Shown one piece after another: positions 6,176 through 58,141 of a DNA stretch of 64,000 nt. Position 1 is the first letter of the stretch, and each line of letters opens with the position of its first letter. Source of the stretch: Escherichia phage BF17; the sequence record MW822008.1; one strand, written 5' to 3'. Both the position numbers and the translations under genes were made by a program. The notes under the pieces are model-generated. The model did not search any database and had not been told where the DNA came from. It saw only the letters and a list, made by a program, of their open reading frames with translations.

Positions 6176-6184
6176 GATTATAAA

Positions 6185-6676: not shown

Positions 6677-6677
6677 A

Positions 6678-11612: not shown

Positions 11613-11617
11613 AACAA

Positions 11618-12305: not shown

Positions 12306-12312
12306 GGTTTAT

Positions 12313-12849: not shown

Positions 12850-12875
12850 CACCCTCCGATTCTTTGTGATATAAT
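12846..12875 (+). promoter_or_regulatory. sigma70-like early promoter
   Basis: TTGACA (12846-12851), 18 nt spacer, TGaTATAAT (-10 at 12870-12875). Confidence 0.55.
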
Positions 12876-12908
12876 CTCTTTATATTAATTGTAAAGGGTT
12901 ATATCACA

Positions 12909-13385
12909 ATGTCCAAAGACCTATCATTTAGCAATGCACAAAAAATAGCAAAAGACATTATCAGGGTTTATAAATTCCTTGCGAATGTTACTGAAGATTT
13001 TTTCGTGGGGGAACATAAAGTTATTAAACGAAATGGATACCTTTCCTTTATGGATGGGTTACTCTATAGTTCAGATGAATCAACTTGTAGCATTAGAGTA
13101 CTTGATGAAGTACCAAGTGGTGATTTTATTTCATACCATTTTCCAAGTTCAGATAATTTCAAATACTACAATCATCTTCTTATAAATGAAGCATTTGATA
13201 CGATTGTAATTAACACTGAAGAAGAGTTCTTCCAGTACAGTACTGTGTATCCAGAGAGGATTGTTTTCAGTTCAGTGATTTACACTGCCCTTAAAAATGA
13301 ACTAAATTCCGATAGTGATCATTACTACTTGGACCTGAACAATGTCGATTGTATTATTGAGTACATGGAGAAAAATGGTTTATGA
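12909..13385 (+). CDS. hypothetical protein, FQ-motif paralog family
   Basis: Motif EEEFFQYSTVYPERI. Confidence 0.65.
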   Translation: MSKDLSFSNAQKIAKDIIRVYKFLANVTEDFFVGEHKVIKRNGYLSFMDGLLYSSDESTCSIRVLDEVPSGDFISYHFPSSDNFKYYNHLLINEAFDTIVINTEEEFFQYSTVYPERIVFSSVIYTALKNELNSDSDHYYLDLNNVDCIIEYMEKNGL

Positions 13386-13876
13386 TTACTACAGAATATG
13401 ATTACTATGGTGTTTTAGAATTTACAGAAAATATCTATCGCATTGCAAAGGAGTTCAGAAGTCCTAAGCCTTTTGGTGGTATGTTTCAATACGATGAGTT
13501 CAGTTCATCTAAAGGAAGACTAGCATTTACTAATGTTAGAGGTAATCAAATCTACGCGGAGTACTTTGATGATAATGACTTTCATTACAAAGCCGAATAC
13601 ATTTCATATTGCCCTGGGTCTGATTTGAAGATTAATATTGATACCTTTAGAGATTCAGTGCTTGTCCCTTATAGTGAGTTAGTTTTCATGACAGAAGAAA
13701 TGTACTTTCAAGAGTCTTGTATTCATGATGTAAAAGTACTTAATGCTATGTTATTTTATGGTGCACTACTTCATCATTACAAATACAAACAACGATTCTT
13801 TTTAGATTTAGTAGTATACTATAAATGCGTGGATTATTTGAATGCAAAATACGACAACAATTCAGTACATGACTGA
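13382..13876 (+). CDS. hypothetical protein, FQ-motif paralog family
   Basis: Motif EEMYFQESCIHDVKVL. Confidence 0.65.
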   Translation: MITTEYDYYGVLEFTENIYRIAKEFRSPKPFGGMFQYDEFSSSKGRLAFTNVRGNQIYAEYFDDNDFHYKAEYISYCPGSDLKINIDTFRDSVLVPYSELVFMTEEMYFQESCIHDVKVLNAMLFYGALLHHYKYKQRFFLDLVVYYKCVDYLNAKYDNNSVHD

Positions 13877-14204
13877 TGGTACTGAATACTTTGTTTCAAG
13901 ATATGTAATCAACCACAACCATTATGTAACCTATATTCCAGAGTACAATCAATTTTATATCCAGATTTATCAAAATAATGGAAAGATAAATGATATATAT
14001 TCAGAAATAAAAATCCCTGATTATAGTACTTTATCAGAAGAGGAATTATTTCAGGAGAGCACTATCAGTACTGAAGATGTGTACGAAATAATGGAATACC
14101 AGAAGGTACTTAAACATTTTCATGAAGCAAATGATATACAAATCGATATTGTTAAACCGTGGTGTTACAATACATATGAGGTAAATTATGTTAGAAATGA
14201 TTAA
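13842..14204 (+). CDS. hypothetical protein, FQ-motif paralog family
   Basis: Motif EELFQESTISTEDV; alternative ATG at 13869. Confidence 0.55.
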   Translation: MQNTTTIQYMTDGTEYFVSRYVINHNHYVTYIPEYNQFYIQIYQNNGKINDIYSEIKIPDYSTLSEEELFQESTISTEDVYEIMEYQKVLKHFHEANDIQIDIVKPWCYNTYEVNYVRND

Positions 14205-14601
14205 AATTATGCAACGCTGTCTTGTTGATCAACACGGGGTATATGGATATCGTTTAAGTGCTCCTATTGACAAAAATAAAACAACCTATGTAAGCTATAA
14301 TGCTGTACAAGGATTTGATATATTCATTAGTACTAATTATCAAATCAAACAAGCGAAAGATGTGTCTATAATGACCCCTGATGAGTTATTTCAGTACAGC
14401 TTAGTCTTTCCTACATGTATCGATTTACAACGTCTAGGAGCGATACAGAAGGTTTTACGCGAACATAAAGTACAACCCAATAAAGTCACACACATTCCAG
14501 AAACAATCTTCAAAACCATAGAAGTAGAAACTCCTGATTATATGTTAAGTGATGATGAGTACTACGAGAAACACTTCCCTGGTAAAGTTTGGAGAGACTA
14601 A
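14188..14601 (+). CDS. hypothetical protein, FQ-motif paralog family
   Basis: Motif DELFQYSLVFPTC. Confidence 0.6.
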   Translation: MLEMIKIMQRCLVDQHGVYGYRLSAPIDKNKTTYVSYNAVQGFDIFISTNYQIKQAKDVSIMTPDELFQYSLVFPTCIDLQRLGAIQKVLREHKVQPNKVTHIPETIFKTIEVETPDYMLSDDEYYEKHFPGKVWRD

Positions 14602-15083
14602 TGAACCGAAAGTACAGAGAAACTATGAAGTTCGCTAAGGAGTGTTTAGAGACAGTTGATTTCATTTTCGATAACAAAGACTCACTGGGTCATCACTTCG
14701 TAATTACAAAGAAAGAAGATAAGAGATACAAGTGTGAAAGATTAGGATACAGTATTGAGTTCTCCTTAATGATTGATGGAATGATAAACTCCTTATATGA
14801 ATGTGGTAAGACTGATTACCTTTCATTTAGATCATGGAGTGAAGGTATCATGTTCTTGAGAACAAATGGAGTTTTATATCCGTTTCTTGATGATTTATCA
14901 GAAGAAAGTTACTTTCAAAATAGTTTAATTTACACAGAAAAAGAACTCAAAATGCTATTCATTATGTCGTACTTTAAAAAGTACTGCAAATTTAATACAT
15001 TATCTTTTGAGATTTCTGCAATGAAAGTATTCATTAAAAATGTAAAAGAATTAAAGAGGGCTTTTAATGTACATAGAAAATGA
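14589..15083 (+). CDS. hypothetical protein, FQ-motif paralog family
   Basis: Motif EESYFQNSLIYTEKEL. Confidence 0.65.
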   Translation: MERLMNRKYRETMKFAKECLETVDFIFDNKDSLGHHFVITKKEDKRYKCERLGYSIEFSLMIDGMINSLYECGKTDYLSFRSWSEGIMFLRTNGVLYPFLDDLSEESYFQNSLIYTEKELKMLFIMSYFKKYCKFNTLSFEISAMKVFIKNVKELKRAFNVHRK

Positions 15084-15609
15084 GAATGTAAAATGCATTA
15101 CTGACATTTGTATAAAATTAATGAAAATTTTCATTAACCCAAAATACAAGACTCGTTCTTTACGTCATAATATTGATGAGCATTGTACCATTAATATACT
15201 AGGTAGTATTCTTGATGTAAAATATGATGGTAAAATGTTATTCGGTATAAGAGAAGAGAAGATAGATGATGCATTCTTTTCTTCTAAAGATAAATTTGAA
15301 CCTTCTGATTATAAAGTGATTATTCGTGATGATAGCATCTATATTAGTAGTGATTATTCAAATTACTTCGATAAAATATACACTGAAAACGTTGACTACC
15401 ATTATGAAATGATAGATTTACCAGTAACAGACATTGATATGGAGAGAATCAAATTTTCATTATCAGATAATGAGTACTTAGGTATACAAACATATTATTC
15501 ACTACAAGGAAAGATTCCACCTGCTATGTATATAAGGATTGAGATTGGTAATGTATTCAATGATAAGGTTATATCAATTGCTGATAAAATATTGGGGGTT
15601 GAATTATGA
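15067..15609 (+). CDS. hypothetical protein
   Basis: 180 aa track ORF within array; motif not clear. Confidence 0.5.
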   Translation: MYIENENVKCITDICIKLMKIFINPKYKTRSLRHNIDEHCTINILGSILDVKYDGKMLFGIREEKIDDAFFSSKDKFEPSDYKVIIRDDSIYISSDYSNYFDKIYTENVDYHYEMIDLPVTDIDMERIKFSLSDNEYLGIQTYYSLQGKIPPAMYIRIEIGNVFNDKVISIADKILGVEL

Positions 15610-16169
15610 ATATCAATGATTACCAATTTCATAGGCTTGAATTTCGTCATTGTGTTGCATTTGCAAAAACATTGATGTGCATCATTGACACTCTTTCATC
15701 CAAACAATTTCGTAAGGATAATGATTTATTTCTGAAAAAAGGTCGTGTAACATCAACCGATATCGGTATTGAACTATTTGTTGATATCAGTGTTGATACC
15801 GGAGACAGTACAAGGGTTGGTTGTATAGGTCATATTGGTACACATTGCTTCACATGGAATCCAAATACAAGTCAAGTACGAATTGATTATAGAAATTCAC
15901 GTTGGGTTGATCTTAGTACTGAATCAGATTTAGAATCAGCTATGTTCCAGCTAAGTTTAATTCACAATCCTAATGAACTTCTTTACATTATTACTTTCAG
16001 TTATCTGTTACAAAACTACAATAAACCATCAGGTTTTTTTATAGAATCAGATATAGATGAAATTATGGAAGAGATTCCCAGTTTAAAGGATATTCTGGAA
16101 GAAAAAGATTTCTATGAAGACTTAAGAGATTTATACGACATGCACTTGGAGTTATTTAAGAATGGATAA
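15606..16169 (+). CDS. hypothetical protein, FQ-motif paralog family
   Basis: Motif ESAMFQLSLIHNPNEL. Confidence 0.6.
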   Translation: MNINDYQFHRLEFRHCVAFAKTLMCIIDTLSSKQFRKDNDLFLKKGRVTSTDIGIELFVDISVDTGDSTRVGCIGHIGTHCFTWNPNTSQVRIDYRNSRWVDLSTESDLESAMFQLSLIHNPNELLYIITFSYLLQNYNKPSGFFIESDIDEIMEEIPSLKDILEEKDFYEDLRDLYDMHLELFKNG

Positions 16170-16680
16170 AGATGATATTCTAATTAGACTAATTAATAGT
16201 TTAATAAAGTTCTCAAATAATGATGTCGATACATACAAAGTAGGGGATATTGAATACAAATCATTTGGTATGTACGGTGAGGATAAAACATATTATGCGT
16301 CAATGAAATTTCAAGATTTTCACGAGATGTTAATATCGTTATCATATGAAGATGTTGATCCAAGATGGAGTTCCAGTATTTCACTATCGAGAATGGTAAT
16401 TCGTAGTAAGCATCGTTATATTTCGTCAAAGAATACTCCTAACTTGATTAATATTGTGTTGAATGAAAATACAAATCCCCTATCTAAACATGATATCGTA
16501 CCGTTAACCGATGAAGTTCTTTTTCAATTGAGTACCATTTGTGATGAAGATGTGATATCATGTATGAAAATTTATGAGAAGGTTGGGAGTGATATTCCTA
16601 TGAACTATTACCTAACTATAGATGGAACGTACCTTCGAGATGATGTTTTAGCGTACATTGACAGTGTTTTACCAAAATAA
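16162..16680 (+). CDS. hypothetical protein, FQ-motif paralog family
   Basis: Motif DEVLFQLSTICDEDV. Confidence 0.6.
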   Translation: MDKDDILIRLINSLIKFSNNDVDTYKVGDIEYKSFGMYGEDKTYYASMKFQDFHEMLISLSYEDVDPRWSSSISLSRMVIRSKHRYISSKNTPNLINIVLNENTNPLSKHDIVPLTDEVLFQLSTICDEDVISCMKIYEKVGSDIPMNYYLTIDGTYLRDDVLAYIDSVLPK

Positions 16681-16702
16681 AGACCCGTATGGGTCTTTTT
16701 GT
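16681..16702 (+). terminator. intrinsic terminator
   Basis: agaccc-gtat-gggtct hairpin followed by TTTTT. Confidence 0.6.
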
Positions 16703-16711
16703 GTTTATGGC

Positions 16712-16740
16712 TTTACAAGAGCATTCAGGTGTGTTATACT
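16712..16740 (+). promoter_or_regulatory. sigma70-like early promoter
   Basis: TTTACA (16712-16717), 17 nt spacer, TATACT (16735-16740). Confidence 0.5.
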
Positions 16741-16767
16741 TGATTTTAACTAGAGTTGGAGGAATCT

Positions 16768-17334
16768 ATGAGTACTGAATTAATTAAAGAAGTCACATTA
16801 CTTCTGAAGCATTGTTTTAAGTTCATTCCTGATACTGGCTCACGCCAGTACATTAAAGTTAATGAGAAATATAACATCAATATCCTTGTATCTGAAACTG
16901 CGAGCAGTTATGCAAACATTGAGTTGGATTCTGAAGAAAAATATACAGTATTACAAATCATAGCAGATGTACAACGTAAACAAGATTATCGTTCTTCATT
17001 TTACAACGATCATCTGTGTGTTTGCTCAAACTTCAGTGAGAATAAAATTGTGTATAAGAATTTATACACACATGAAGTGATTGATACATATAATTATAAA
17101 ATTTCATCTGATGAATACAATGTTCTAATGTTCAACGCAAACCTTTTGTATGATGCCAGTACTGTACGCTGTTTAGAGTTAGCATATAAAATTCCAAAGA
17201 TCATGGAAAGAAAAGATTTGATTCACTTTAAAACTATTTTAAAATACAGTACAAAAGAATTAGAGGATTTAGTACAGGCTCTTAAGAATTTCATTAATGA
17301 ACATGTACCTGTTAAATTCGAGGATGCACAATGA
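16768..17334 (+). CDS. hypothetical protein, FQ-motif paralog family (degenerate motif)
   Basis: Track ORF 16756..17334; ATG 16768 after GGAGG. Confidence 0.5.
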   Translation: MSTELIKEVTLLLKHCFKFIPDTGSRQYIKVNEKYNINILVSETASSYANIELDSEEKYTVLQIIADVQRKQDYRSSFYNDHLCVCSNFSENKIVYKNLYTHEVIDTYNYKISSDEYNVLMFNANLLYDASTVRCLELAYKIPKIMERKDLIHFKTILKYSTKELEDLVQALKNFINEHVPVKFEDAQ

Positions 17335-17915
17335 ACCATATCAGAACTAAAATTTTGAGACTCATGCATGACATTGCAGAACTTTCAGAGATTCATGACA
17401 TTACAGAAATTGTTGAATTTGATAATTATCGACTGAAAATTGAAAACAAATCCAAACATCGTTTTGGTTCAGTTCAGTTGGATGTATATAAAACTTATGA
17501 ATTTTCTAAAAAAATTAAAAGTTCATGGGATACGATTACTATGTACATTCGCACATCCAGAAATCGTGAACGTATTGGTTCTATTTCTTCTAATATGGTA
17601 TTTGCGAATGCATTACATGAAAAAATGAATAAAATTGTAGAATCTGATTTCAGTGAAGATGATGGTTTTATTGGGTTGGATGTTCCACCAGAATTAGACC
17701 AAAGTGAAGATATTCGAGATGCATTCATTTTCCAGAAATCATTGTTGGACAATTACAAAGAATTCGAGTACTTAATGCTTTGTTACGATACTGCAAAAGT
17801 TCTTGATTGTGGTGAACTAGTTATGTACAATGATTTTATCAATTACAAGACTGATGTTCTGAATACACTACTTCAAAATATAGAATCGGTTAAGGAAAAA
17901 TATGAACGCTTATAG
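17331..17915 (+). CDS. hypothetical protein, FQ-motif paralog family
   Basis: Motif DAFIFQKSLLDNY. Confidence 0.6.
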   Translation: MNHIRTKILRLMHDIAELSEIHDITEIVEFDNYRLKIENKSKHRFGSVQLDVYKTYEFSKKIKSSWDTITMYIRTSRNRERIGSISSNMVFANALHEKMNKIVESDFSEDDGFIGLDVPPELDQSEDIRDAFIFQKSLLDNYKEFEYLMLCYDTAKVLDCGELVMYNDFINYKTDVLNTLLQNIESVKEKYERL

Positions 17916-18483
17916 TTATATGACAGAACGCCATCAGTTATTATATGATATCAGTAAAAAAATGCTATCAATTGTTGGTAGTGCGAAAGAAATTGAAAAA
18001 CAATATCTCATCCGTGATGTATCAATTTCATCCAAATGTTGGTCAAATGAATATTACGACCACGGTATTCTTACTATTTCTGGGGCCAGAAATATTTGTA
18101 TTGTAAAAAATAAAAGTAAAAGTAATGAAGAGTGTGAGATTAGAACCGATATACAAATTAAGGATGATGGAAGTTTTTCACATCACCCATTCCATATTAG
18201 TACTATTGGTGTTTTATATAATATTAAAGTACTATTCGGTGATGAAGAGTATGTGTTAAAAGCTATCAATCCAGATTCAAGTACAGTTGAAGAAGAACTG
18301 TTCCAGATGAGCACTGTTATACCTGAAGAGGTTCTTAGTACTGTTGTTTTTTGTAGTTTAATTTATCATACATACAAAAAGAACCAATTCGATTTCCACA
18401 TTTTAGGAACGTACATCTTCAATACTTTGAATGTTGATCGTTTAAAAGCATTAAATGCAGCAATGGATAAGGTGCTACAATGA
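17902..18483 (+). CDS. hypothetical protein, FQ-motif paralog family
   Basis: Motif EEELFQMSTVIPEEVL. Confidence 0.6.
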   Translation: MNAYSYMTERHQLLYDISKKMLSIVGSAKEIEKQYLIRDVSISSKCWSNEYYDHGILTISGARNICIVKNKSKSNEECEIRTDIQIKDDGSFSHHPFHISTIGVLYNIKVLFGDEEYVLKAINPDSSTVEEELFQMSTVIPEEVLSTVVFCSLIYHTYKKNQFDFHILGTYIFNTLNVDRLKALNAAMDKVLQ

Positions 18484-31113: not shown

Positions 31114-31389
31114 ATGAATTATAAAGTTCTACAATATACATACAGTGTTTTGTTTGATTTACATCACAATGGAAGATATCTCAATACAATACGAGAAAAC
31201 ACATTCACTCATACTATCTGGATTAATCACTTAATAATGATACGTGAATATTTTGTTAATAGTGAGATAATCATTCGTGGTAAAAAACAGAAGATAGAAC
31301 AAGTTAATAGTTTTGGTGGTAAATTAGTACTATCATTTATAGATAGTAATACTAATGAAAGATATAGTATAGATTTGGTGGACATATGA
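31114..31389 (+). CDS. hypothetical small protein, family B
   Basis: 91 aa; N-terminal YxYxxLFDL pattern shared with following ORFs. Confidence 0.55.
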   Translation: MNYKVLQYTYSVLFDLHHNGRYLNTIRENTFTHTIWINHLIMIREYFVNSEIIIRGKKQKIEQVNSFGGKLVLSFIDSNTNERYSIDLVDI

Positions 31390-31652
31390 ATTATAAAGAT
31401 TTCCTACTAACATACAAGATTATTCGAGATTTAGCACACGACAATGATAGCCCTAGTCTAGAAGACACATGCACTGAAATGATTCATACGATTCGTGGTA
31501 AGATTAAAAAAAAATTCAGTACTGTTATTATTGGTGATGACCATGCAGAATTTTCTGATATAATCATTAGACGTGATGGTAAAGTTGAGGTTCAGTACTA
31601 CACTGATTTTGGATTTACCAGTATTCCGTTGGAGATATTCCCTTGGGATTAA
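31386..31652 (+). CDS. hypothetical small protein, family B
   Basis: ATGA overlap; paralog of neighbours. Confidence 0.55.
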   Translation: MNYKDFLLTYKIIRDLAHDNDSPSLEDTCTEMIHTIRGKIKKKFSTVIIGDDHAEFSDIIIRRDGKVEVQYYTDFGFTSIPLEIFPWD

Positions 31653-31954
31653 ATTTAAATGATATACAATTCACTTATAAGATCCTATATGATTTGTATG
31701 ATGTATACCTTGTTAGTAACAACATAGGTTCACATAACCGATCCAAAGAACAACCATTTATTGATTTATATATTGAGTACTTAGATTCAGTAGGTGAATA
31801 TATAAAAAAGAATTACAGTACTTTTATCGATGGAAATGATAAATTCGATTTCTATGGTGTACAATCATATAATGGTATAATCCATGTTCAATTTCAGGAA
31901 ATAACCGATAGGGGATTTATCGAGATTAAAGTTGTGAAGTTGGTGAATTTATAA
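31643..31954 (+). CDS. hypothetical small protein, family B
   Basis: No in-frame ATG; TTG start 8 nt after GGAG; LNDIQFTYKILYDLY. Confidence 0.5.
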   Translation: MGLNLNDIQFTYKILYDLYDVYLVSNNIGSHNRSKEQPFIDLYIEYLDSVGEYIKKNYSTFIDGNDKFDFYGVQSYNGIIHVQFQEITDRGFIEIKVVKLVNL

Positions 31955-31964
31955 GAGGTTACAT

Positions 31965-32276
31965 ATGTTATTAAATGATATACAATTCACATACAAATTT
32001 TTGTATATCCAATACGCTACGGTTGATGCTGGAGAATATCTCTACAGTGAAATCTATCGTTCGGTATGGATAAAGTTTTTGGATGAATTACATGAATATT
32101 ACCATGATTTGTGCATAGTTCGTGATAATAAAATATACAAATTCCGCGATATTGTTAGTCATAGCGGTAAGCTACGATTGGAATTAAGTACTGATAGTGA
32201 TGTTGATTGGATTGGTGTAAATTTACTGGAGTTGGAGAATGAAAAACAACTTAAAGGAAATACAAGTATTTTATAA
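31965..32276 (+). CDS. hypothetical small protein, family B
   Basis: LLNDIQFTYKFLY near-identical N-terminus to previous. Confidence 0.55.
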   Translation: MLLNDIQFTYKFLYIQYATVDAGEYLYSEIYRSVWIKFLDELHEYYHDLCIVRDNKIYKFRDIVSHSGKLRLELSTDSDVDWIGVNLLELENEKQLKGNTSIL

Positions 32277-32523
32277 ATTCTTATACTTGTCATATGTAAA
32301 AGATGAGTACTATGAAAGTGTGTATTATTTTTTATGGCAACATTACCGTACTATAGTAAGAGATTTATATATAGGAAAATCTATCATATCCAATGGTGAA
32401 AAATGTATATGTACGGATGTAGTTAGTTTTAATGGTTCTTTAACACTGTGTTTCAGATGCGATAATAATAGTGGGTCATTTTCATTAAACGTATATCAGT
32501 TAGAAGGAATAAATTTTGAATAA
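32239..32523 (+). CDS. hypothetical small protein, family B
   Basis: KEIQVFYKFLYLSY; GGAG RBS. Confidence 0.55.
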   Translation: MKNNLKEIQVFYKFLYLSYVKDEYYESVYYFLWQHYRTIVRDLYIGKSIISNGEKCICTDVVSFNGSLTLCFRCDNNSGSFSLNVYQLEGINFE

Positions 32524-48974: not shown

Positions 48975-49670
48975 ATGGTTGAACAATTCATGTTTGGTGG
49001 TTATGCTAATGGCGAAGTACGTAACATTTCTATTCCTTACGTAGTTGAGAAAGTTAATGGTTCAGAACGTACATATGATCTAGCATCTCGTATGATGCAA
49101 GACCGTATCATTTTCCTTGATACTGATTTCAATGATCAAATGGCACATATCATCAAACAACAATTGGTATGGTTAGACTCACAAGGTGATTCCCCTATTA
49201 CATTCTACATTAGTTCACCGGGTGGTTCAGTACACGCAGGTTTGGGTATTGCAGATGTTGCTAAGTCTTGTATTTCGCCAATTCGCACTGTAGTAATGGG
49301 CTATGCAGCATCAATGGGTTGCTATACACAATCTGTTATTGGGACTAAAGGTTTCCGTTTAGGTGGTAAACGCTCATACTTCATGTGTCACCAAGTAAGT
49401 TCTGGTACACAAGGTCTAATTACAGACCAGAAGATTTCCCTACAACATTCTGATGCACTGAATACATTGTTGACCAAAGAAATTGCAGAAGCTGTAGGTG
49501 TATCACATGAACAATTACTAAAAGATGCTGACCGCGATTTGTGGTTAAATGCAGAAGAAGCACTTGAATATGGTGAACATGGTTTCATTGATGGTATTAT
49601 TCTTGGTCCACGTAACGAAGAAGGCAAGTACTTAGTTAAGCGTCGCGGTGGTGTAGAAGAGTGGGTGTAA
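48975..49670 (+). CDS. clpP: ATP-dependent Clp protease proteolytic subunit homolog
   Basis: Aligns with bacterial ClpP: SPGG, Ser in AASMG, His in CHQ, Asp in DADRD. Confidence 0.9.
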   Translation: MVEQFMFGGYANGEVRNISIPYVVEKVNGSERTYDLASRMMQDRIIFLDTDFNDQMAHIIKQQLVWLDSQGDSPITFYISSPGGSVHAGLGIADVAKSCISPIRTVVMGYAASMGCYTQSVIGTKGFRLGGKRSYFMCHQVSSGTQGLITDQKISLQHSDALNTLLTKEIAEAVGVSHEQLLKDADRDLWLNAEEALEYGEHGFIDGIILGPRNEEGKYLVKRRGGVEEWV

Positions 49671-50583: not shown

Positions 50584-51132
50584 ATGCAGCAATATAATTT
50601 AACTGAAGAACAAAGTGATATTTTTTACCATCATATGTTTTTAATTGATGAATTTGCTTTAAAAATTAATTCTGAAGCAATTGATATATTGAAGAAATGG
50701 TATAGTTGTTATAATAAAAACAAAAAGTGGTATTGGTTTAATAGAAATATAAAATCATTTCTAAAAACAATCACATACACTGATAGTATTGAGTTAATAC
50801 ATAGTTCTATTGGATATAGTTACTTAACTAAACACAACAGTACTATGATGTTATCAGGGTTTAAAGTTGAAAGAATTTCCAAGTTAACAGGTTTGTCATT
50901 AGAAACAATTCTATATGATATTGAGAAAATTTGGAAAACTATAGAATTAATGCATAAAAATATGTCATTCATATATAGAAATTATGATATATTCACTGAT
51001 GTACGACAATATCATAATAAACCGTATGTATTGGATGAAAAGTACTATAATCATATGGAAGTTTGTTCTAAACTCGTTGATGATTGGAATCTAGAGGGAC
51101 ATAATGAAATACACACACCTAAGTATAGATGA
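50584..51132 (+). CDS. hypothetical protein
   Basis: Track ORF 50578..51132; ATG 50584. Confidence 0.5.
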   Translation: MQQYNLTEEQSDIFYHHMFLIDEFALKINSEAIDILKKWYSCYNKNKKWYWFNRNIKSFLKTITYTDSIELIHSSIGYSYLTKHNSTMMLSGFKVERISKLTGLSLETILYDIEKIWKTIELMHKNMSFIYRNYDIFTDVRQYHNKPYVLDEKYYNHMEVCSKLVDDWNLEGHNEIHTPKYR

Positions 51133-51628
51133 TACTAATATCTGGTTAGATAACATAATCAAGACATTAGAATTAATTAAACTTACATTACAAAAAACTA
51201 CTGATATTGAAATTAATATTAAACAAGAAATATTAAACTATTATCATAGAAACAAATATAGCACGTTTATCTCTAAATTAATTTATGGATTATATGATAT
51301 TGAAGATATTTGCATCGGTTACAGTACTGGTATTTGCTTCACAGTTAATGGTTTAAAAAATGATTTAAATTTCAGACTTTCCGATGAAGAGCAAGATTTT
51401 CGTAGATTTTGTGATAATATTATGGATACAGATAAAATTACATTTGTTATTGAATTAAATCAAACGTGGTCTACATATGCAGATAAACCATTTGAAATTA
51501 ATGAAACAGATGTGTTAAACTATATTCGAGTTATGAAAATTCATGATTTGTGTAAAAACGCATTGTTAAGTATTGGAGCTTATAATGAAACATACGACTT
51601 GGTTGAAGATAGCAGAAGTAGTTGCTGA
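51104..51628 (+). CDS. hypothetical protein
   Basis: 174 aa track ORF; overlaps cd start by ~44 nt, 3' end uncertain. Confidence 0.45.
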   Translation: MKYTHLSIDDTNIWLDNIIKTLELIKLTLQKTTDIEINIKQEILNYYHRNKYSTFISKLIYGLYDIEDICIGYSTGICFTVNGLKNDLNFRLSDEEQDFRRFCDNIMDTDKITFVIELNQTWSTYADKPFEINETDVLNYIRVMKIHDLCKNALLSIGAYNETYDLVEDSRSSC

Positions 51629-52064
51629 GGAAAGTAAATGTATTTCACAAAAAGTTGGTTGTGTTATTGTTAAAAATAACCGAGTATTGAGTACTGGATA
51701 CAATGGTACTCCATCAAAACAACCAAATTGTTGTGATGTGAATCAACACTTAGTCAATGATGGACGTTTTCAAGACTGGGTTAGTGATGAAGCAAAGCAT
51801 GAACATCATGAGTGGAGTAATATTCATGAAATCCATGCTGAAATGAACGCTTTACTCTATAGTTCTCCTACTGAACGTCAAGGTGCTACTCTTTACACAA
51901 CACTACAACCATGTTATACTTGTTCTAAGTTGATCGCAGGTAGTGGAATTTCACGTGTAATTTATCTCAAAAATTATCCTCGTACACCACCAGAAGCTAT
52001 TAAAGTACTGGAAGATGCTGGAATTATTGTTAATTGCATTTATGATAAGGGTCTTGATAAATGA
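51585..52064 (+). CDS. cd: dCMP deaminase
   Basis: Track ORF 51573..52064; ATG 51585 after GGAG; zinc motifs HAEMNA and PCYTC; N-terminus aligns with T4 Cd. Confidence 0.9.
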   Translation: MKHTTWLKIAEVVAEESKCISQKVGCVIVKNNRVLSTGYNGTPSKQPNCCDVNQHLVNDGRFQDWVSDEAKHEHHEWSNIHEIHAEMNALLYSSPTERQGATLYTTLQPCYTCSKLIAGSGISRVIYLKNYPRTPPEAIKVLEDAGIIVNCIYDKGLDK

Positions 52065-52318
52065 CAGTAATAATTATTATTGCTTTTCTAATAACAGTGT
52101 TTTTCATTTTTATGTTATATATAGTTGCTATGGATGAACCTAATACTTCTTTTCGAAATTATGAAGTTCGTTTTTCTGCACAAAATAATAAGTACTATAT
52201 TGTAAACTGTATACACCGTAGTGAGAAAAGGGTAACAAGTAGATTTGGATTTACCATTTATTATAAAGACCGAGTAGAAGCTGATATGATTTGTCAGAAG
52301 CTTAATACTGTAGAATAA
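52061..52318 (+). CDS. small membrane protein
   Basis: 85 aa, N-terminal hydrophobic helix; ATGA overlap with cd. Confidence 0.5.
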   Translation: MTVIIIIAFLITVFFIFMLYIVAMDEPNTSFRNYEVRFSAQNNKYYIVNCIHRSEKRVTSRFGFTIYYKDRVEADMICQKLNTVE

Positions 52319-52347
52319 AAAAAAGGAGCCGTATGGCTCCTTTTTTT
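52317..52347. terminator. bidirectional intrinsic terminator
   Basis: A-run, ggagcc-gtat-ggctcc hairpin, T-run; lies between convergent genes. Confidence 0.65.
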
Positions 52348-52348
52348 G

Positions 52349-52726
52349 TTAACCAGGGAGGTTACAATAATACAAATCCCAAGGGTGATATTTCATCGCA
52401 CCAGTACTCAATTTAATTTTATGAAACTGGAATGATTCGGCAAATGCACTATCGTCAATCTTAATACAAAAAGTGTTTTTGGCTAGAGTTGGTGCAATTT
52501 CCAATGCTGTTTTAGATGCATCTAATCTAATTTTATCTTTATCATAACTAGTGATAGTTACAAAACGATAAACATTAAAATCAGTATCAATGAGATCGTA
52601 AACACAACTAGAACGTTGATTAAAGATGTTCAAGTTATATTTCAATTCACCGTTTATATTAGCTGCGGTTACACAAAACCCGCCGATATTGAATGGTAGT
52701 TTACCTTGTGCTGCGATAGCTTTCAT
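52349..52726 (-). CDS. hypothetical protein (only convincing minus-strand gene)
   Basis: 125 aa; AAGGA RBS upstream of start on minus strand; intergenic space both sides. Confidence 0.55.
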   Translation of the reverse strand: MKAIAAQGKLPFNIGGFCVTAANINGELKYNLNIFNQRSSCVYDLIDTDFNVYRFVTITSYDKDKIRLDASKTALEIAPTLAKNTFCIKIDDSAFAESFQFHKIKLSTGAMKYHPWDLYYCNLPG

Positions 52727-52795
52727 ATTTTATTTCCTTTTTAAATATAAGTATGAAATATATTTGTTTTTTACATCAGATGCACCATGAACTAG

Positions 52796-52824
52796 TTGAC
52801 AAAACATCAGTGGTATGATATGAT
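52796..52824 (+). promoter_or_regulatory. sigma70-like early promoter
   Basis: TTGACA (52796-52801), 17 nt spacer, TATGAT (52819-52824). Confidence 0.5.
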
Positions 52825-52886
52825 CTGTTATAAACTGTACACCTTAAGTTTTATTTTTAAAAATTTGAGTTAAGTACAGAAAAAGT

Positions 52887-52915
52887 TTGACTTAAGTGTT
52901 TAAGTACTATATTAT
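52887..52915 (+). promoter_or_regulatory. sigma70-like promoter
   Basis: TTGACT (52887-52892), 17 nt spacer, TATTAT (52910-52915). Confidence 0.4.
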
Positions 52916-52950
52916 TTATATCTTCCTAAACAAAATTGAGGACTTGTTAT

Positions 52951-53559
52951 ATGAAAAGACTATGGCTTGAAGTGATACAAGCAGCAATGTTTCTATTGTT
53001 AATAAATTTTCCAGCCAGTGCTGGTATTGAAAGTAAAAATGTGATAAAGTATAATCCTGAAACCCGAAATGTATATTTCATATCAGATATTACAGATGGG
53101 TCACTCAAGAGAATGATAGAGTTGTATGATAAAGAACACTATGATACCATCACAATTACATCTCCTGGTGGTGATTTTGATGCAGGTATTCGAATGGCAA
53201 ACTTTGTTAGAGACAATGGGATAAATTTAATTGTTTCTAGGTATTGCAATTCAGCATGTACTGTGGTATTCTTTAGTGTATCTCCCGAAAAGCGATATAT
53301 GACAAATCGCTCAGTACTGGGTCTTCATAACATTTCGATTAAAAGTAATGTTACTGATGGTGATAATTCATTTGTGTCTGTAAGACAGTTATCAACTTTT
53401 ACCGAAGAAATGGCAACAAAGGTAGGTTTCCTTTTTTCACTATATGCAGCAAATGGAATCCCACCAGAAGTTCTATTTAGAGTTAGTCGTTCTCGTGGTG
53501 AAGATGTTGTAATATTAACAAAACCAGAACTGGTTTTTTACGGTTCAGTCAAACAATAA
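52951..53559 (+). CDS. secreted ClpP-fold serine peptidase-like protein
   Basis: Track ORF 52936..53559; ATG 52951; signal peptide MKRLWLEVIQAAMFLLLINFPASA; SPGGDFDAG motif, candidate Ser (CNSAC) and His (GLHN). Confidence 0.55.
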   Translation: MKRLWLEVIQAAMFLLLINFPASAGIESKNVIKYNPETRNVYFISDITDGSLKRMIELYDKEHYDTITITSPGGDFDAGIRMANFVRDNGINLIVSRYCNSACTVVFFSVSPEKRYMTNRSVLGLHNISIKSNVTDGDNSFVSVRQLSTFTEEMATKVGFLFSLYAANGIPPEVLFRVSRSRGEDVVILTKPELVFYGSVKQ

Positions 53560-53629
53560 AAATAATTAAAATAACAGGATGATTATGATGTACTTCCTTT
53601 GTTATTAATTATATTGAGATTATATAACT

Positions 53630-53890
53630 ATGACAAACATCCAAAACTTGACATCTATTATTTTTTATGCTACTGTAGTAATGTATGCTACAGTTATTTT
53701 TCTAACAGTTTTCATTTACAAAGATTATCGTAATGGCTTTATTGATTCAACTACAATGAAGTTCAATTCAAAATTCGAAGCAATAATTTATTATGTACTA
53801 TCAACTTCATACTTGGTGTGCCTAATGTTGTTAGGAGCACTAATTTATATCTTATACACAACATTATTTGCAATTGGAGCTATTTTATGA
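53630..53890 (+). CDS. small membrane protein
   Basis: 86 aa, two hydrophobic helices. Confidence 0.5.
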   Translation: MTNIQNLTSIIFYATVVMYATVIFLTVFIYKDYRNGFIDSTTMKFNSKFEAIIYYVLSTSYLVCLMLLGALIYILYTTLFAIGAIL

Positions 53891-54480
53891 CCTGTATTAT
53901 TGCACACACTAACGGAGTAAGTTCTTTTATTGCTGGGGATAAGTTAGGAAGCAATGGATTTACAAAAACTGTTCAAACTGAACCAAAGGTATTCGAGAAA
54001 GAATTTATCAAGTTACATGATGATGGACTAACTAGAACTAAAGAAGTAATGGCATTGGGTTATACTACATCATTTCGTATGGGTCAGTTGTTAAATTATA
54101 ACCTTAATTTACCTGAACAAGATGCTAGTCAAACATTTTCACAATATTTGGTTCTTAAAGTTATTCCAATTATTCGTCAAATGTTTAAAGAAGAATGGGG
54201 TGCACGAGATGCATCACAAGATGTAGGTGGTGGACAATTTATCATTCTCCACAATCATACAATCTATGAAGTTCAAGAAGACTTTTCAGTACTACAACCT
54301 AAAACAAGAATTACCGCAGTAGGTAGTGGGACATATCATGCAATTGCAGCAATGCAAGCATATATTGAAGTTGAGAACGAATCTAAAAAACCACTACACG
54401 AACGTATCAAATCAATTTTTAAAATTGTTAGTGATAATGTAACAAGCGTAAGCGAAGAGTTTGATGTTTTAAAATATTAA
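53887..54480 (+). CDS. HslV/proteasome beta-like Ntn-hydrolase peptidase
   Basis: Track ORF 53818..54480; ATG 53887 overlaps upstream stop; Thr2 after Met; IAGD and AVGSGTYHAIAAMQAY align with HslV. Confidence 0.6.
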   Translation: MTCIIAHTNGVSSFIAGDKLGSNGFTKTVQTEPKVFEKEFIKLHDDGLTRTKEVMALGYTTSFRMGQLLNYNLNLPEQDASQTFSQYLVLKVIPIIRQMFKEEWGARDASQDVGGGQFIILHNHTIYEVQEDFSVLQPKTRITAVGSGTYHAIAAMQAYIEVENESKKPLHERIKSIFKIVSDNVTSVSEEFDVLKY

Positions 54481-54507
54481 AAGTACTAATATTATAAGAG
54501 AGAATAG

Positions 54508-54702
54508 ATGATGGCATACACAATTTATGAATGGGTTTTGAGTTTTTTTATAGTTTTTTCTATTGTTGTAATTTATAACAATACTAAATGCTTATATAGG
54601 GACTTGAAATCCAATGGTTATCACAAAGATAATAATTTTATGTATGCCTATCATATTGGAATCATTCTGTTATTATCAATATATTTAATTGGTTTTTTAT
54701 AA
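54508..54702 (+). CDS. small membrane protein
   Basis: 64 aa, two hydrophobic helices. Confidence 0.45.
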   Translation: MMAYTIYEWVLSFFIVFSIVVIYNNTKCLYRDLKSNGYHKDNNFMYAYHIGIILLLSIYLIGFL

Positions 54703-54711
54703 GGATTGAAT

Positions 54712-55464
54712 ATGATATCAGAAAAATTTATAAGCAATGAAGGTAAAAAGCGATTACTGATTATATCAGGTGCAGGACTTTCTGTTGAAAGTGGTATGGA
54801 ACCTTTTCGATTTGATGATGGTTTGTGGGATACATTTAAAATTAATGATGTATGTAACATTGCTAGTTTAACTACAAAATATCATGTTGTTCATTCTTTC
54901 TATAATACATTACGTGTAAAATTGGGACAATGCGAACCGAATGCAATGCATTATTTTATAAAATCGTTAGAAGATCAATATGGTGATTGCTTCCTTCATA
55001 TGACTTCTAACATGGACGATCTTTATACTCGTATTGGTGGTCATGAGCTTAAACTTCATGGAAACTTGTGCGAAGTTATTGAAAATTATAGTATCAATTC
55101 CGATGATTATAATGTTATTAACTGCGGATACGAACCATACATACCAAAACATGATGTTTTTGCTAAACCAAATGTAGTAATGATTGGAGAATATCATCGT
55201 TATGTTGATGGTATTCGCTTACCAATTTACGAAGAACGAAATAATGTGTTGAAATCTCTTAATGAAAATGATACAGTTATTGTAATTGGTAGTAGCGATA
55301 CAGTACTGGTATGGTCGAGATTAGCAGCAGCATTACCATGTTATAGTGTTAATGTTAACATTCGTAAAAATGATAATGATTTTTTGTTTAATGAAAAAGT
55401 TATCAAGCCAGCAACCAAAGCAATACCGCATCTAGAGACTATAATTAAGGAACGTATGAAATGA
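54712..55464 (+). CDS. Sir2/CobB-family sirtuin-like protein
   Basis: Track ORF 54706..55464; ATG 54712 after AAGGA; GAGLSVESGMEPFR, catalytic His LHGN, VIVIGSS; aligns with CobB. Confidence 0.8.
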   Translation: MISEKFISNEGKKRLLIISGAGLSVESGMEPFRFDDGLWDTFKINDVCNIASLTTKYHVVHSFYNTLRVKLGQCEPNAMHYFIKSLEDQYGDCFLHMTSNMDDLYTRIGGHELKLHGNLCEVIENYSINSDDYNVINCGYEPYIPKHDVFAKPNVVMIGEYHRYVDGIRLPIYEERNNVLKSLNENDTVIVIGSSDTVLVWSRLAAALPCYSVNVNIRKNDNDFLFNEKVIKPATKAIPHLETIIKERMK

Positions 55465-56012
55465 GTGTTAAAGAAGTTCCCTTTGGTGAATATGGCACAC
55501 GTGCAAATTTTGTATTTTGTTATTTCTTTGCAAGAAAATGCAACCCTTACAAAAACTATGAGTTGAATGATATACCAGAAGTAAATTTAGTATTACTGCA
55601 ATTACGATGGGATGGTCTTCTTGGTGGATGTGGTGGAACCGTAGAAAGTACTGATATCTCACTAGAAGATGCGTTGCGTCGTGAAGTTCAAGAAGAAATG
55701 GATTACAATATTTTTGTTTCCCATCTTCGACCACTCAAAACTTTTGAAATTTACCCAGGTGCAAACAGTCACAGTTTTAGCTATGAAGTAACCTATGACG
55801 AGTTGAAACACATTAGAGATGGATACACTAATGCTAAACATGCAAGTGCAGAAGTTGCTGGTGTAAATTTATGTCATATTTCTCGTTATTCTAAGGGACA
55901 AAATCGAGAAGCGGGATATAATAATCTTATGACACAGAACTTCATCGGTACAGCAAAACAAGAATTGGAGTATCTGGTTCAAAAAGAAAACTTACTAATT
56001 AGTTATCTATAG
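55461..56012 (+). CDS. Nudix hydrolase
   Basis: ATGA-coupled to the sirtuin gene; Nudix box GGTVESTDISLEDALRREVQEE. Confidence 0.7.
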   Translation: MSVKEVPFGEYGTRANFVFCYFFARKCNPYKNYELNDIPEVNLVLLQLRWDGLLGGCGGTVESTDISLEDALRREVQEEMDYNIFVSHLRPLKTFEIYPGANSHSFSYEVTYDELKHIRDGYTNAKHASAEVAGVNLCHISRYSKGQNREAGYNNLMTQNFIGTAKQELEYLVQKENLLISYL

Positions 56013-56021
56013 GAGTTTAAC

Positions 56022-56342
56022 ATGTCTTACTCAATGTTTTTGGATGATATTCGTGATGCAAATCTATATTATCCAAACCAAGATATGGTGGTATGTCGTG
56101 ACTTTAAAAGTGCATGTGAATATGTTATTGAAAATGGAATTCCAGCATTTGTATCATTCGACCATGACTTGGGTGATGTGAGCGAAGACGAAAAGACTGG
56201 ATATTCTTTTGCTAAGTTTCTTATTGATTATATGTTTGATAATAATATTAAAGAACCGTTTGAGTACTTTGTTCACAGTAGTAATCCTGTTGGTAAAATT
56301 AATATTGAAACATACTTAAACAATGGATTTAACGCATTATGA
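56022..56342 (+). CDS. hypothetical protein
   Basis: 106 aa track ORF. Confidence 0.5.
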   Translation: MSYSMFLDDIRDANLYYPNQDMVVCRDFKSACEYVIENGIPAFVSFDHDLGDVSEDEKTGYSFAKFLIDYMFDNNIKEPFEYFVHSSNPVGKINIETYLNNGFNAL

Positions 56343-56641
56343 TTCAAACACACATCAAAAGTCTTATTTGTACTGTTCTGTTAGGTGCAGGAGTTCTTTG
56401 GTTCGGACAGTATCACGAGAACACTAAGCGTACCAACATTCACTACAATACCGCAGAAGTTGTTAGTTTAGGACAATGTAGCGAGTCCAAATGTTCATTT
56501 ATGTATAAAACCCAAAGTGGTGAAGTACGTAATGGACTATCAAGAGAACCAGTTTCAATTGGTCAACTTGTTTACCAGGAGTGCTGGGAAGAAAAGGTTC
56601 GAGGTTCACGTTGCTATGTTGAATACGAACCAAATATGTAA
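56339..56641 (+). CDS. membrane-anchored Cys-containing protein
   Basis: N-terminal hydrophobic segment; four Cys. Confidence 0.5.
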   Translation: MIQTHIKSLICTVLLGAGVLWFGQYHENTKRTNIHYNTAEVVSLGQCSESKCSFMYKTQSGEVRNGLSREPVSIGQLVYQECWEEKVRGSRCYVEYEPNM

Positions 56642-56701
56642 TAATCCGAGTCAATAACATTAGTCGAGTACAAGGATGTACTCATAACTCAAGGATGTTT
56701 T

Positions 56702-58141
56702 ATGAAAAAATATACAATTGACACAAACGTACTACTATCTGACCCGAATGCATCTATTGCTTTTGATGGTGCTGCAATCATTCTACCATTTACAGTACTG
56801 GAAGAATTGGATTCAATTAAGAGTCGTAATGTAGATGTTTCACGCGATGCTCGTGTTGCTATTCGTAACATTGAAGCAATTATTGCAGATGCATCACATG
56901 ATGAGATTAGTAGTACTGGTGTTAATATTGCTGATGTTCATACCAATATGAATCCTGATAGCAAATTGTTTGTTATTACAAACGAAGAAGCTGAAGCACT
57001 AATTCGTACTAAAGGTTCAGAAGAGAAAGTTCAAACCCTTCTCAAAAGCACAGTACCTGATGATAAAATCATTCTGGTAGCTTTAGCAACAGAATCAGTA
57101 CTGGTAACTCGTGATATCAACATGCGTATCAAAGCACTAAGTTATGGTGTCGAGGTACAAGATTATCGCCATGATATTGTTATTGGTGATAGTGATTTGA
57201 TTCACATTGGTCAACACCATTTGGAAATTAATTTTTGGGAAGTATATAGCAACTTATCCAATACTAATATTCAATCCGAACAAGTTGGTCGTCGTTTGTA
57301 TCATTACATTTCTAAAAGCTTGATTGAACATTTGCTTCCACAAAATCTATGCATCGGTGATTATCTATATGATGATGCAGACGTATTATTTGTGTACGAA
57401 GGTCAATCAGCAATTGAGGAAGATGATGGAACACTAACACCAGAAGATATTTTGGTATTCCAAGATATTGGACAATCAGTAGCTTTACGTGCTAAAGTAT
57501 GGGATATTAAAGCAAAGAATATCCAACAAGCACTCGCCATCAACAGTATTCTCGATCCTGATGTACATCTAACAGTACTGCTAGGTTCTGCTGGTACTGG
57601 TAAAACACTAATTACGATTGCTACTGCATTAGAATTAGTACTGGAAAAACGTAAATACGACCGAATCATCTTCTCTAAAACTCAAGACTCACAGTTTGAA
57701 GATATTGGTTTCTTGCCAGGTTCAGAAGCAGAAAAAGTGATTCCATTCTGTGGAGCCGCAATTGACGCGTTAGAGTTTCTTCATAAAGATGATGCTAACC
57801 CACAAGGTAGTATTGAAGAGATTATGAAACGTAATGTTATTCAATTTAAAGCACTAAACTTTGTACGTGGACGTTCATTCACCAACACTATTCTAGTAGT
57901 TGATGAATTCCAAAACATTACACCTGCACAAGCCAAAACAATCTTGACACGAGCAGGATTAAACTGTAAAGTAGTAATTATGGGTAACTTGAGTCAGATT
58001 GACAGTAAGTTTATTAGTCCTGTTAACAGTGGTTTGACATATGTAACTGAGAAGTTTAAAGATTGGGCAGGTTGTCGTGTCATCGAACTTGAAGGTGTTG
58101 TTCGCTCACCACTAGCTGAATTTGCTGAAGAAAATATGTAA
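56702..58141 (+). CDS. phoH: PIN-domain PhoH-like ATPase (PhoH2 type)
   Basis: N-terminal PIN-like region (DTNVLL, LEELD); Walker A GSAGTGKT; Walker B VVDEFQN. Confidence 0.88.
   Translation: MKKYTIDTNVLLSDPNASIAFDGAAIILPFTVLEELDSIKSRNVDVSRDARVAIRNIEAIIADASHDEISSTGVNIADVHTNMNPDSKLFVITNEEAEALIRTKGSEEKVQTLLKSTVPDDKIILVALATESVLVTRDINMRIKALSYGVEVQDYRHDIVIGDSDLIHIGQHHLEINFWEVYSNLSNTNIQSEQVGRRLYHYISKSLIEHLLPQNLCIGDYLYDDADVLFVYEGQSAIEEDDGTLTPEDILVFQDIGQSVALRAKVWDIKAKNIQQALAINSILDPDVHLTVLLGSAGTGKTLITIATALELVLEKRKYDRIIFSKTQDSQFEDIGFLPGSEAEKVIPFCGAAIDALEFLHKDDANPQGSIEEIMKRNVIQFKALNFVRGRSFTNTILVVDEFQNITPAQAKTILTRAGLNCKVVIMGNLSQIDSKFISPVNSGLTYVTEKFKDWAGCRVIELEGVVRSPLAEFAEENM

Follow-up and report, generated by a model that had tools for sequence, protein, structure and literature searches.

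We examined a 64,000-nt window of the genome of Escherichia phage BF17 (MW822008.1), in which two predicted peptidases, a ClpP-like and an HslV-like protein, are encoded on the + strand together with two small membrane proteins, here called sm1 and sm2. The four open reading frames (ORFs) were found, with their codons checked, where an initial annotation made from the letters of the window had placed them: the ClpP-like protein of 202 aa (52951..53559; PBECO4 gp097, 121Q gp473), which has a ClpP fold and a putative signal or anchor helix, sm1 of 86 aa (53630..53890; 121Q gp474), the HslV-like protein of 197 aa (53887..54480; PBECO4 gp096, 121Q gp475), which starts M-T-C and has an N-terminal nucleophile (Ntn) fold like that of HslV and of the Betaproteobacteria proteasome homologue (BPH), and sm2 of 64 aa (54508..54702). 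The two small flanking proteins each have the two hydrophobic, transmembrane (TM)-like segments expected of them, with a Kyte-Doolittle hydropathy of at least 1.6 (residues 6-31 and 49-86 in sm1, 2-28 and 43-64 in sm2).

The window belongs to an Asteriusvirus, a PBECO4/121Q-type jumbo phage of E. coli of about 350 kb, and the 4 kb around the cluster are 99.2-99.6% identical to about 18 Escherichia and Salmonella Asteriusvirus genomes, among them PBECO4, phAPEC6, Sharanji and G17; for phage 121Q the figure is 92%. The window shows 99.5% identity to PBECO4 and its relatives. Both peptidases are already labelled in public records, gp097 as 'protease' and gp096 as 'peptidase HslV family' in the PBECO4 RefSeq entry, and gp473 as 'protease (ClpP-like)' and gp475 as 'protease (ClpYQ-like)' in the 121Q record of 2014, where a ClpP encoded upstream (gp464) is also called 'protease (ClpP-like)'. 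The two peptidase calls of the initial annotation therefore reproduce existing database labels, and for this window our result mainly confirms them.

The four ORFs, their lengths and the overlap between the sm1 and HslV-like genes are kept in 121Q and likewise in three contigs from metagenomes or E. coli assemblies (L006, L007 and L008), and the relatives that retain all four reach 47-65% identity for the ClpP-like protein, sm1 and sm2. All four ORFs are under purifying selection, with pairwise ratios of nonsynonymous to synonymous substitution (dN/dS) of 0.10-0.26 for the ClpP-like gene, 0.06-0.12 for sm1, 0.04-0.08 for the HslV-like gene and 0.20-0.35 for sm2. The ClpP-like gene diverges much faster than the HslV-like gene, its product being only about 50% identical in the three contigs as against 83-88% for the HslV-like protein over the same genome pairs. 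The stop codon of sm1 overlaps the start codon of the HslV-like gene (ATGA), and both the length of sm1 and this overlap are the same in 121Q and the three contigs; sm1 is annotated in 121Q and carries no annotation in the PBECO4 RefSeq entry. A 63-64-aa ORF corresponds to sm2 in 121Q and the three contigs at 47-97% identity, and is a called gene in L007 and without annotation in PBECO4 and 121Q. A weak PHROG 18969 'membrane protein' match was found for sm2 (E 0.003), no similarity was detectable between sm1 and sm2, and neither resembled a characterised family in Pfam and PHROG scans. Because the dN/dS values are low (0.04-0.35 over all four ORFs), sm1 and sm2 are real genes. Both are specific to this lineage. 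PADLOC gave zero matches for the four cluster proteins, as did Rfam in 52000-55000. Neither peptidase scored above threshold in Pfam or NCBIfam, and single-sequence searches of the PDB with them returned chance matches only; profile searches were required.

Fold, active site and predicted export of the ClpP-like protein

Structure prediction of the two peptidases returned the ClpP and Ntn-hydrolase folds that the initial annotation had proposed. The AlphaFold2 (AF2) model of the ClpP-like protein has a predicted local distance difference test (pLDDT) score of 92 and contains a ClpP domain including the handle helix (residues 144-167), and its top 50 Foldseek matches were all ClpP (E about 1e-8, TM-scores about 0.55-0.74). 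In a 32-sequence alignment of the family, reaching down to 18-25% identity, S71, G73, G74, C99, S101, C103 and H126 are invariant. These residues fall in the S71-P-G-G motif (53161-53172, +; residues 71-74, within T-S-P-G-G-D 70-75), which had been noted from the start, in the elbow C99-N-S101-A-C103 (53245-53259, +) and at His126 (53326-53328, +), and a PDB profile match aligned S101 and H126 with the catalytic Ser and His of ClpP. An invariant Lys is absent from the same alignment, and the candidate for a general base is the invariant His126.

The N-terminus of the protein, MKRLWLEVIQAAMFLLLINFPASA|G, reads MKR...AAMFLLLINF-P-A-S-A|G, a hydrophobic helix followed by A22-S23-A24|G25 (52951-53025, +), in keeping with the signal-like segment that had been described. 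Hydropathy by the Kyte-Doolittle scale is at least 1.6 over residues 4-26, the AF2 model has a helix at residues 2-18 followed by a low-confidence linker at 21-28, and the motif F20-P-A-x-A24 (F20, P21, A22 and A24) is invariant in the close subfamily. These features point to export of the protein. The helix carries an acidic/polar pair (E7 and Q10 here, K-E-F-L in phage RaK2) that is unusual for a plain signal peptide.

An indexed homologue search found 13 close relatives, and an exhaustive profile search for the family found 1,889 cluster representatives at E<=1e-3. When representatives were clustered at 50% identity, C-x-S-x-C was present in 165 of 166, a hydrophobic N-terminal segment in 123 and a lipobox-like motif in 27. 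A full-length match to PHROG 26024 'protease' was obtained for the protein of this phage, which scored 24.9 bits with the NCBIfam ClpP model against a cut-off of 228, and half of the aligned family members (16/32) matched Pfam CLP_protease at E<0.01. Judged by their motifs and N-termini, the C-x-S-x-C proteins make up a separate family of ClpP fold, mostly extracytoplasmic, for which neither Pfam nor NCBIfam has a dedicated model. Bacterial neighbourhoods of these genes (Massilia and one metagenome contig) were uninformative.

An orphan predicted Ntn hydrolase of the HslV/proteasome-beta type

For the HslV-like protein, structure prediction and fold search returned the HslV/proteasome-beta Ntn fold, a sandwich of the alpha-beta-beta-alpha type whose nucleophile lies at the N-terminus of the mature chain, with helix pairs at residues 63-72 plus 84-104 and 149-161 plus 170-184, and the Thr directly after the initiator Met and the GSG signature (residues 146-148) that had led to the original call are both in place. 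The fold is equally close to HslV and to BPH. Across 38 HslV-like sequences (down to 27% identity), M1, T2, C3, D18, K34, G146 and G148 are invariant and G58 is conserved in at least 90%, so placing conserved positions at Thr2 (53890-53892, +), Asp18 (53938-53940, +), Lys34 (53986-53988, +), Gly58 (54058-54060, +) and G146-S147-G148 (54322-54330, +). The specificity of methionine aminopeptidase includes removal of Met before Thr, and after such removal the conserved set would correspond, on alignment, to Thr1, Asp17, Lys33, the equivalent of Gly47 and the G-S-G of HslV and the proteasome. Among 160 viral and bacterial loci the N-terminus reads M-T-C-[IV] in 141 and M-S-C-I in one, and the other loci that were inspected have mostly V/L-T-C (apparent GTG or TTG starts) or M-T-A/L.

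The protein matched PHROG 1040 'peptidase HslV family' (E 4e-24) and nothing significantly in Pfam. It scored 20.0 bits with the HslV equivalog model NF003964 (cut-off 137) and 18.9 bits with TIGR03692 (cut-off 157.75), and its identity to HslV structures is 15-19%. A homologue search found 76 proteins, down to 27% identity, and the family as a whole was located in 196 isolate phage records, 374 IMG/VR contig stretches and 390 stretches of GTDB representative genomes. The isolate phages include T5-like Epseptimavirus, jumbo phages of Aeromonas, Vibrio, Xanthomonas and Salicola, and phages of Geobacillus, Psychrobacter and Moorella; the bacterial genomes include many Azospirillum and other alpha-proteobacteria, Polyangiaceae (Myxococcota), Paenibacillus (Firmicutes), Chloroflexota and Patescibacteria, with no Actinobacteria among the best 80 matches.

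Clustering of the genes around 52 dereplicated viral HslV-like loci gave an HD-domain protein as the commonest neighbour (6 groups), followed by others that include Thg1, NAD-dependent ligase, PheRS and PhoH, and no ATPase partner was among the recurrent neighbours. No hslU-like gene adjoined the HslV-like gene in any viral or bacterial locus examined, the bacterial neighbourhoods (Azospirillum) being otherwise uninformative. A tblastn search of 50,697 phage records, made with an E. coli HslU query that was validated by a 97% match to Salmonella HslU, matched 164 records. Only 4 of these are named Escherichia, as against at least 29 Asteriusvirus-type Escherichia records in the collection, and no HslU or ClpX-like match was obtained in Asteriusvirus by tblastn, which bears out the initial statement that no HslU-like ATPase is visible. 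In the PBECO4 annotation the sole ATPase entry within 1-150 kb is the divergent gp010, the other 198 kb being covered by the HslU tblastn alone. Since no ATPase partner recurs around the gene in 52 loci and Asteriusvirus gave no HslU match, the HslV-like peptidase is an orphan, and a genome paper on a Salmonella jumbo phage likewise records HslV genes with HslU absent (PMC7823757).

Two ATPase-related observations stand beside this result. PBECO4 gp010 'ATPase' (L093 10012-11337, outside the window) is a 441-aa protein whose AAA match is marginal (21.3 bits) and for which the PDB gave no relative in sequence. Its gene lies in structural surroundings, and the virion list of phage phAPEC6 has an 'ATPase' of matching mass (49.5 kDa) that may be the product of the same gene. 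As an unfoldase candidate gp010 is unlikely. On another contig (L011 2029-3843), a 604-aa FtsH-like protein, with a weak Torsin-type AAA+ match and Peptidase_M41, is encoded upstream of the HslV-like gene; it and a homologue of Apyc1 (anti-Pycsar) both lie 1-4.5 kb upstream of that gene.

Interpretation of the four-gene block

We consider it probable that the block consists of two unrelated, non-structural accessory peptidases and two lineage-specific membrane mini-proteins. In the virion proteome of phAPEC6, determined by mass spectrometry (MS) and comprising 62 proteins, gp347 and the PhoH protein gp341c from the region of the cluster are included, and neither gp346c (ClpP-like) nor gp345c (HslV-like) was detected (PMC7247149). 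A candidate sigma70-type promoter (52796..52824, +; TTGACA-17-TATGAT with an extended-10 TG, 11/12 matches) is the best site in 52000-55000 and lies in the 224-nt intergenic region 5' of the cluster; the total of sigma70-like sites is not above shuffle expectation, so the promoter is a lead only. The HslV-like gene is found among nucleotide-metabolism and accessory genes in this genome, and its homologue in the T5-like phage EPS7 is in the early nucleotide-metabolism block. From the sigma70-like promoter and the position of the gene in EPS7, placement of the cluster in an early region is plausible.

According to this reading, the four genes would probably be co-transcribed from a host-type promoter before the late genes, and both peptidases would be expressed alongside genes of accessory or counter-defence type (Sir2, Nudt16-like NUDIX, cREC-REC and PIN-PhoH). 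The catalytic domain of the ClpP-like protein would be placed outside the cytoplasm by its N-terminal signal peptide or signal anchor and would act ATP-independently on the periplasmic side by means of Ser101 and His126, on substrates that may be envelope proteins or peptides. The invariance of the two cysteines and their likely oxidising location suggest that C99 and C103 could form a periplasmic disulfide across the nucleophile elbow. For the HslV-like protein, methionine aminopeptidase would expose Thr2, which would act with Asp18 and Lys34, with Gly58 as the oxyanion hole and Ser147 within G-S-G; the resulting cytoplasmic Ntn hydrolase would probably form a closed double ring, as in HslV and BPH, and degrade peptides or unfolded proteins without a phage-encoded unfoldase. 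From the neighbouring genes, the role of the two enzymes is most plausibly host takeover or counter-defence. Directly 3' of the cluster (window 54706-58141) lie genes for Sir2, a Nudt16-like NUDIX protein, cREC-REC (cyclic-phosphate processing receiver), a 100-aa protein called 'membrane protein' in PBECO4, and PIN-PhoH, a stretch that looks like an NAD/ADP-ribose handling or counter-defence island. The arrangement has a syntenic counterpart in RaK2-like loci, where NMNAT-NUDIX, NAMPT and Acb1 are present in addition, and in other phages the HslV-like gene has Acb1, NAMPT/NMNAT, Gad2 or Apyc1 as neighbours.

Several observations weigh against this interpretation. With Pfam CLP_protease (PF00574) the ClpP-like protein scores 17.5 bits, below the gathering cut-off of 20.2, and in its alignment a third, acidic catalytic residue is not fixed, positions 184 and 185 being occupied by E, D, N or K. 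Within the putative signal segment E7 and Q10 are invariant in the subfamily, and RaK2 ORF497 (L178 2387-2983) retains the hydrophobic helix and lacks A-x-A; for these two reasons it is uncertain whether the protein is cleaved and released or stays anchored, the two alternatives, cleaved signal and signal anchor, being equally possible. Compared with HslV and the shorter homologues, the HslV-like proteins of Asteriusvirus/RaK2 carry about 20 additional residues in the beta-hairpin that follows Lys34, and these may bear on ring assembly. The literature searched contained no activity, localisation, oligomer or expression data for any member of either family.

The initial annotation had suggested that these peptidases may hijack host unfoldases. 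In such a scheme HslV-like rings would dock E. coli HslU, and a canonical ClpP would dock ClpX/ClpA, redirecting degradation to host or defence proteins. The canonical ClpP homologue of 231 aa (48975..49670, +; PBECO4 gp105) does lie 3 kb upstream, outside the four-gene block, as had been described, with a Pfam CLP_protease score of 141 bits (E 4e-41) and the motifs AASMG, CHQV and DRDLW (Ser113/His139/Asp186). In favour of the proposal, the searches returned no unfoldase of the phage itself, HslU is available in the E. coli host, and the HslV-like protein has a fold as near to HslV as to BPH and, like E. coli HslV, lacks a propeptide. Set against this are the low identity to HslV structures (15-19%), the scores of 19-20 bits where the equivalog models require 137 and 158, and the presence of the family in very diverse bacteria, never adjoining an hslU-like gene in the loci examined. 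The periplasm contains neither ATP nor unfoldases, and the proposal therefore cannot apply to the ClpP-like protein if its export is real. We regard hijacking as rather unlikely, the use of host HslU by the HslV-like protein being possible and not favoured.

Larger schemes in which the membrane proteins link the two enzymes are less probable still. In the broader of these, which we put forward as a speculation with little weight, the C-x-S-x-C proteins would be an undescribed clade of extracytoplasmic, possibly disulfide-stapled, ATP-independent ClpP-fold peptidases, and the phage would pair one of them with a cytoplasmic, unfoldase-independent proteasome homologue, the 2-TM mini-proteins co-ordinating a two-compartment system for host takeover or counter-defence. 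Slightly more doubtful is a trans-envelope module, drawn by loose analogy with NfeD protease and stomatin, in which sm1 and sm2 would tether or regulate a ClpP-like enzyme on the periplasmic face and an HslV-like ring on the cytoplasmic face. In its favour, the order of the four genes persists even in genomes whose ClpP-like protein has diverged to about 50% identity, the ATGA overlap of sm1 and the HslV-like gene is conserved, two of the three 2-TM mini-ORFs in the whole window flank the HslV-like gene, and RaK2-like phages have 2-TM mini-proteins directly upstream of the HslV-like gene as well as a syntenic ClpP-like gene. Against it stand the dissimilarity of sm1 and sm2 to each other and to characterised families, the far faster evolution of the ClpP-like gene, and the arrangement outside the genus. 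In RaK2 (Alcyoneusvirus) the ClpP-like gene occupies the syntenic slot, after a dCMP deaminase gene and a minus-strand structural gene, and the genes on its 3' side encode cytidyltransferase, HNH and NAMPT proteins, not the HslV-like protein. In RaK2-related loci the HslV-like gene has genes of NAD salvage and several small ORFs on its upstream side, and in RaK2-like phages the ClpP-like gene lies outside the 5-kb flank of the HslV-like gene. Since other genes adjoin each of them there, the two peptidase genes appear to be separated in RaK2.

Two candidate associations of this kind were rejected on wider sampling. Small membrane proteins as partners throughout the HslV-like family made up 4.5% of the genes within two genes of it, against a background of 6.8% (52 loci), and this lack of enrichment also counts against the trans-envelope module. 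A general pairing of the ClpP-like and HslV-like genes was sought with a profile of the 32-sequence alignment, by which the exported type was found in 121Q alone among 84 loci. A cytoplasmic ClpP-like gene 5' of the HslV-like gene was found solely in the L004/L005 and L009 lineage; on these contigs (L004 5107-6549 and L009 4103-5555, from contigs of 87 kb and 62 kb) the order is PhoH, cytoplasmic ClpP-like, HslV-like, and the L009 protein has the elbow C-G-S-M-C, similar to the C-x-S-x-C of the exported family. Within Asteriusvirus the four genes are a conserved unit and outside the clade the arrangement dissolves, so the adjacency of the peptidases characterises the clade and speaks only weakly for a functional complex. 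The 'phage proteolytic module' of the initial annotation thus holds within the Asteriusvirus/RaK2 clade and fails beyond it, where no neighbour recurs in more than 6 of 52 groups and small membrane proteins are not enriched; overall the observation behind that annotation is confirmed and its interpretation partly supported.

That one or both proteins are head-maturation (prohead) proteases is very improbable, and for this phage largely refuted. The nearest PHROG and NCBIfam labels for ClpP-like proteins, and some homologue records, read 'head maturation protease', as does the PHROG label of the canonical ClpP, and in several small phages the HslV-like gene stands beside terminase, portal or capsid genes, for which reason the HslV-like protein was considered as the prohead protease. 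For this phage the idea was rejected on the phAPEC6 virion MS, in which gp227c, annotated as prohead core scaffold and protease and encoded elsewhere, is found without gp345c and gp346c (PMC7247149); in view of the same data, the label that the canonical ClpP shares with some ClpP-like homologues is probably a family-name artefact. An exported protein, moreover, cannot reach proheads, and both here and in EPS7 the HslV-like gene is among nucleotide-metabolism and accessory genes. The loci with terminase, portal or capsid genes adjoining are L054, L064, L069, L070 and L075, some with stop/start overlaps (HslV-like match at about 5001 in L054, L064 and L069, at 1628-2089 in L070 and at 744-1274 in L075). 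Beside the capsid gene in L069 and L075, ORFs of 433 aa and 461 aa resemble HK97-type prohead proteases, their N-termini having been judged by eye, which again argues against this assignment. The HslV-like family may have a head-associated role in some phages.

Equally improbable is that the proteins are inactive or non-proteolytic homologues, the Ntn protein a connectase-like transpeptidase or ligase (Pfam points weakly, at E 0.08, to a connectase N-terminal domain) and the ClpP-fold protein a crotonase-like or binding protein (it has no conserved Asp, and its invariant cysteines could bind metal or be redox-active), since the one conserves the oxyanion Gly and all of T1/D17/K33, and in the other the Ser and His align with those of the ClpP active site.

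Other features of the window were recorded alongside the cluster. A 125-aa virion protein gene on the minus strand (52349-52726) stands amid + strand genes; it corresponds to phAPEC6 gp347, which had 75% coverage in virions, an Ig-domain is noted in 121Q, and the matching slot in RaK2 is taken by a 'major tail protein' gene, also on the minus strand. A 174-aa ORF at 51104-51628 is intact here and in 121Q and is split in the PBECO4 RefSeq entry into gp101 and gp100 'virion structural protein', which may be a frameshift or a sequencing difference. Two interleaved families of eight paralogous ORFs each (about 110-195 aa, +; BLASTP E<1e-4) occupy 4473-18483 and a third family of three ORFs occupies 31114-32523, all of them 'hypothetical' in PBECO4.

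If the accessory-peptidase reading is right and the enzymes are active, two peptidases of the self-compartmentalising type would be used by a virus without an unfoldase of its own, and one of the two would act outside the cytoplasm. Because no member of the widespread HslV-like family has been studied biochemically, a single experiment would annotate hundreds of genes, and it would put to the test whether a proteasome homologue can function by itself. For a first characterisation, the C-x-S-x-C family of ClpP fold, which neither Pfam nor NCBIfam models, offers a clean target. The remaining interest is modest, and attaches to this under-described exported family and to the want of biochemistry for both families.

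Comparison with known peptidase systems

With ClpP (S14) the ClpP-like protein shares the fold, the handle helix, the S-P-G-G oxyanion region and the Ser and His at catalytic positions, and it differs in its N-terminal signal or anchor segment, in having no invariant Asp, in its sub-cut-off Pfam score and in its elbow, which is C-x-S-x-C where that of ClpP is A-x-S-M-G. ClpP is cytoplasmic and works with ClpX/ClpA, whereas the hydrophobic N-terminal helix and A-S-A|G of the phage protein point to the periplasm, where there is no unfoldase. Closer in predicted location are SppA and NfeD (1510-N; S49), membrane-bound enzymes in which a ClpP-type fold is used at or outside the membrane without ATP, as would be the case here. 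NfeD genes are paired with a membrane-protein gene, and a weak match of the ClpP-like protein to Pfam NfeD1b_N was found (13.5 bits against a cut-off of 40). SppA and NfeD enzymes use a Ser-Lys dyad, in contrast to the ClpP-like family with its invariant His and no invariant Lys.

The HslV-like protein differs from HslV (ClpQ, T1B) in its low identity and in scores far below the curated HslV models, in having no hslU adjoining or elsewhere in the phage genome, in the mature second residue, which is an invariant Cys in the phage family rather than Thr, and, in the Asteriusvirus/RaK2 clade, in the hairpin after Lys34 that is longer by about 20 residues. BPH (PDB 5OVS and 5OVU) resembles it in having no apparent partner unfoldase; the BPH assembly is a tetradecamer whose pore loop is elongated and highly acidic, and some members of BPH have Ser1, whereas in the HslV-like family Thr stands after the initiator residue in practically every one of 160 loci. 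The group-I proteasome homologues AAH, CPH and PPH have been described as phage-borne, propeptide-free radiations from BPH and HslV (Fuchs, Alva & Lupas 2021, PMC8665760), and the HslV-like family is likewise of group I, propeptide-free, present in Caudovirales and spread by phages. PPH has about 140 aa and lacks helix H2, whereas the HslV-like protein has 197 aa and contains H2 (84-104); because the family has both helix pairs and 175-200 residues, it is not PPH. With AAH it agrees in the H1-H4 helix set, in the length of 175-200 aa and in occurrence in alpha-proteobacteria, Firmicutes and phages; AAH is known from Actinobacteria as well. The HslV-like protein is most likely a member of the AAH-like cluster, a placement taken from architecture and phyletic pattern only, to be added to the points of caution listed above, and the finding fits the described class of phage-borne proteasome homologues.

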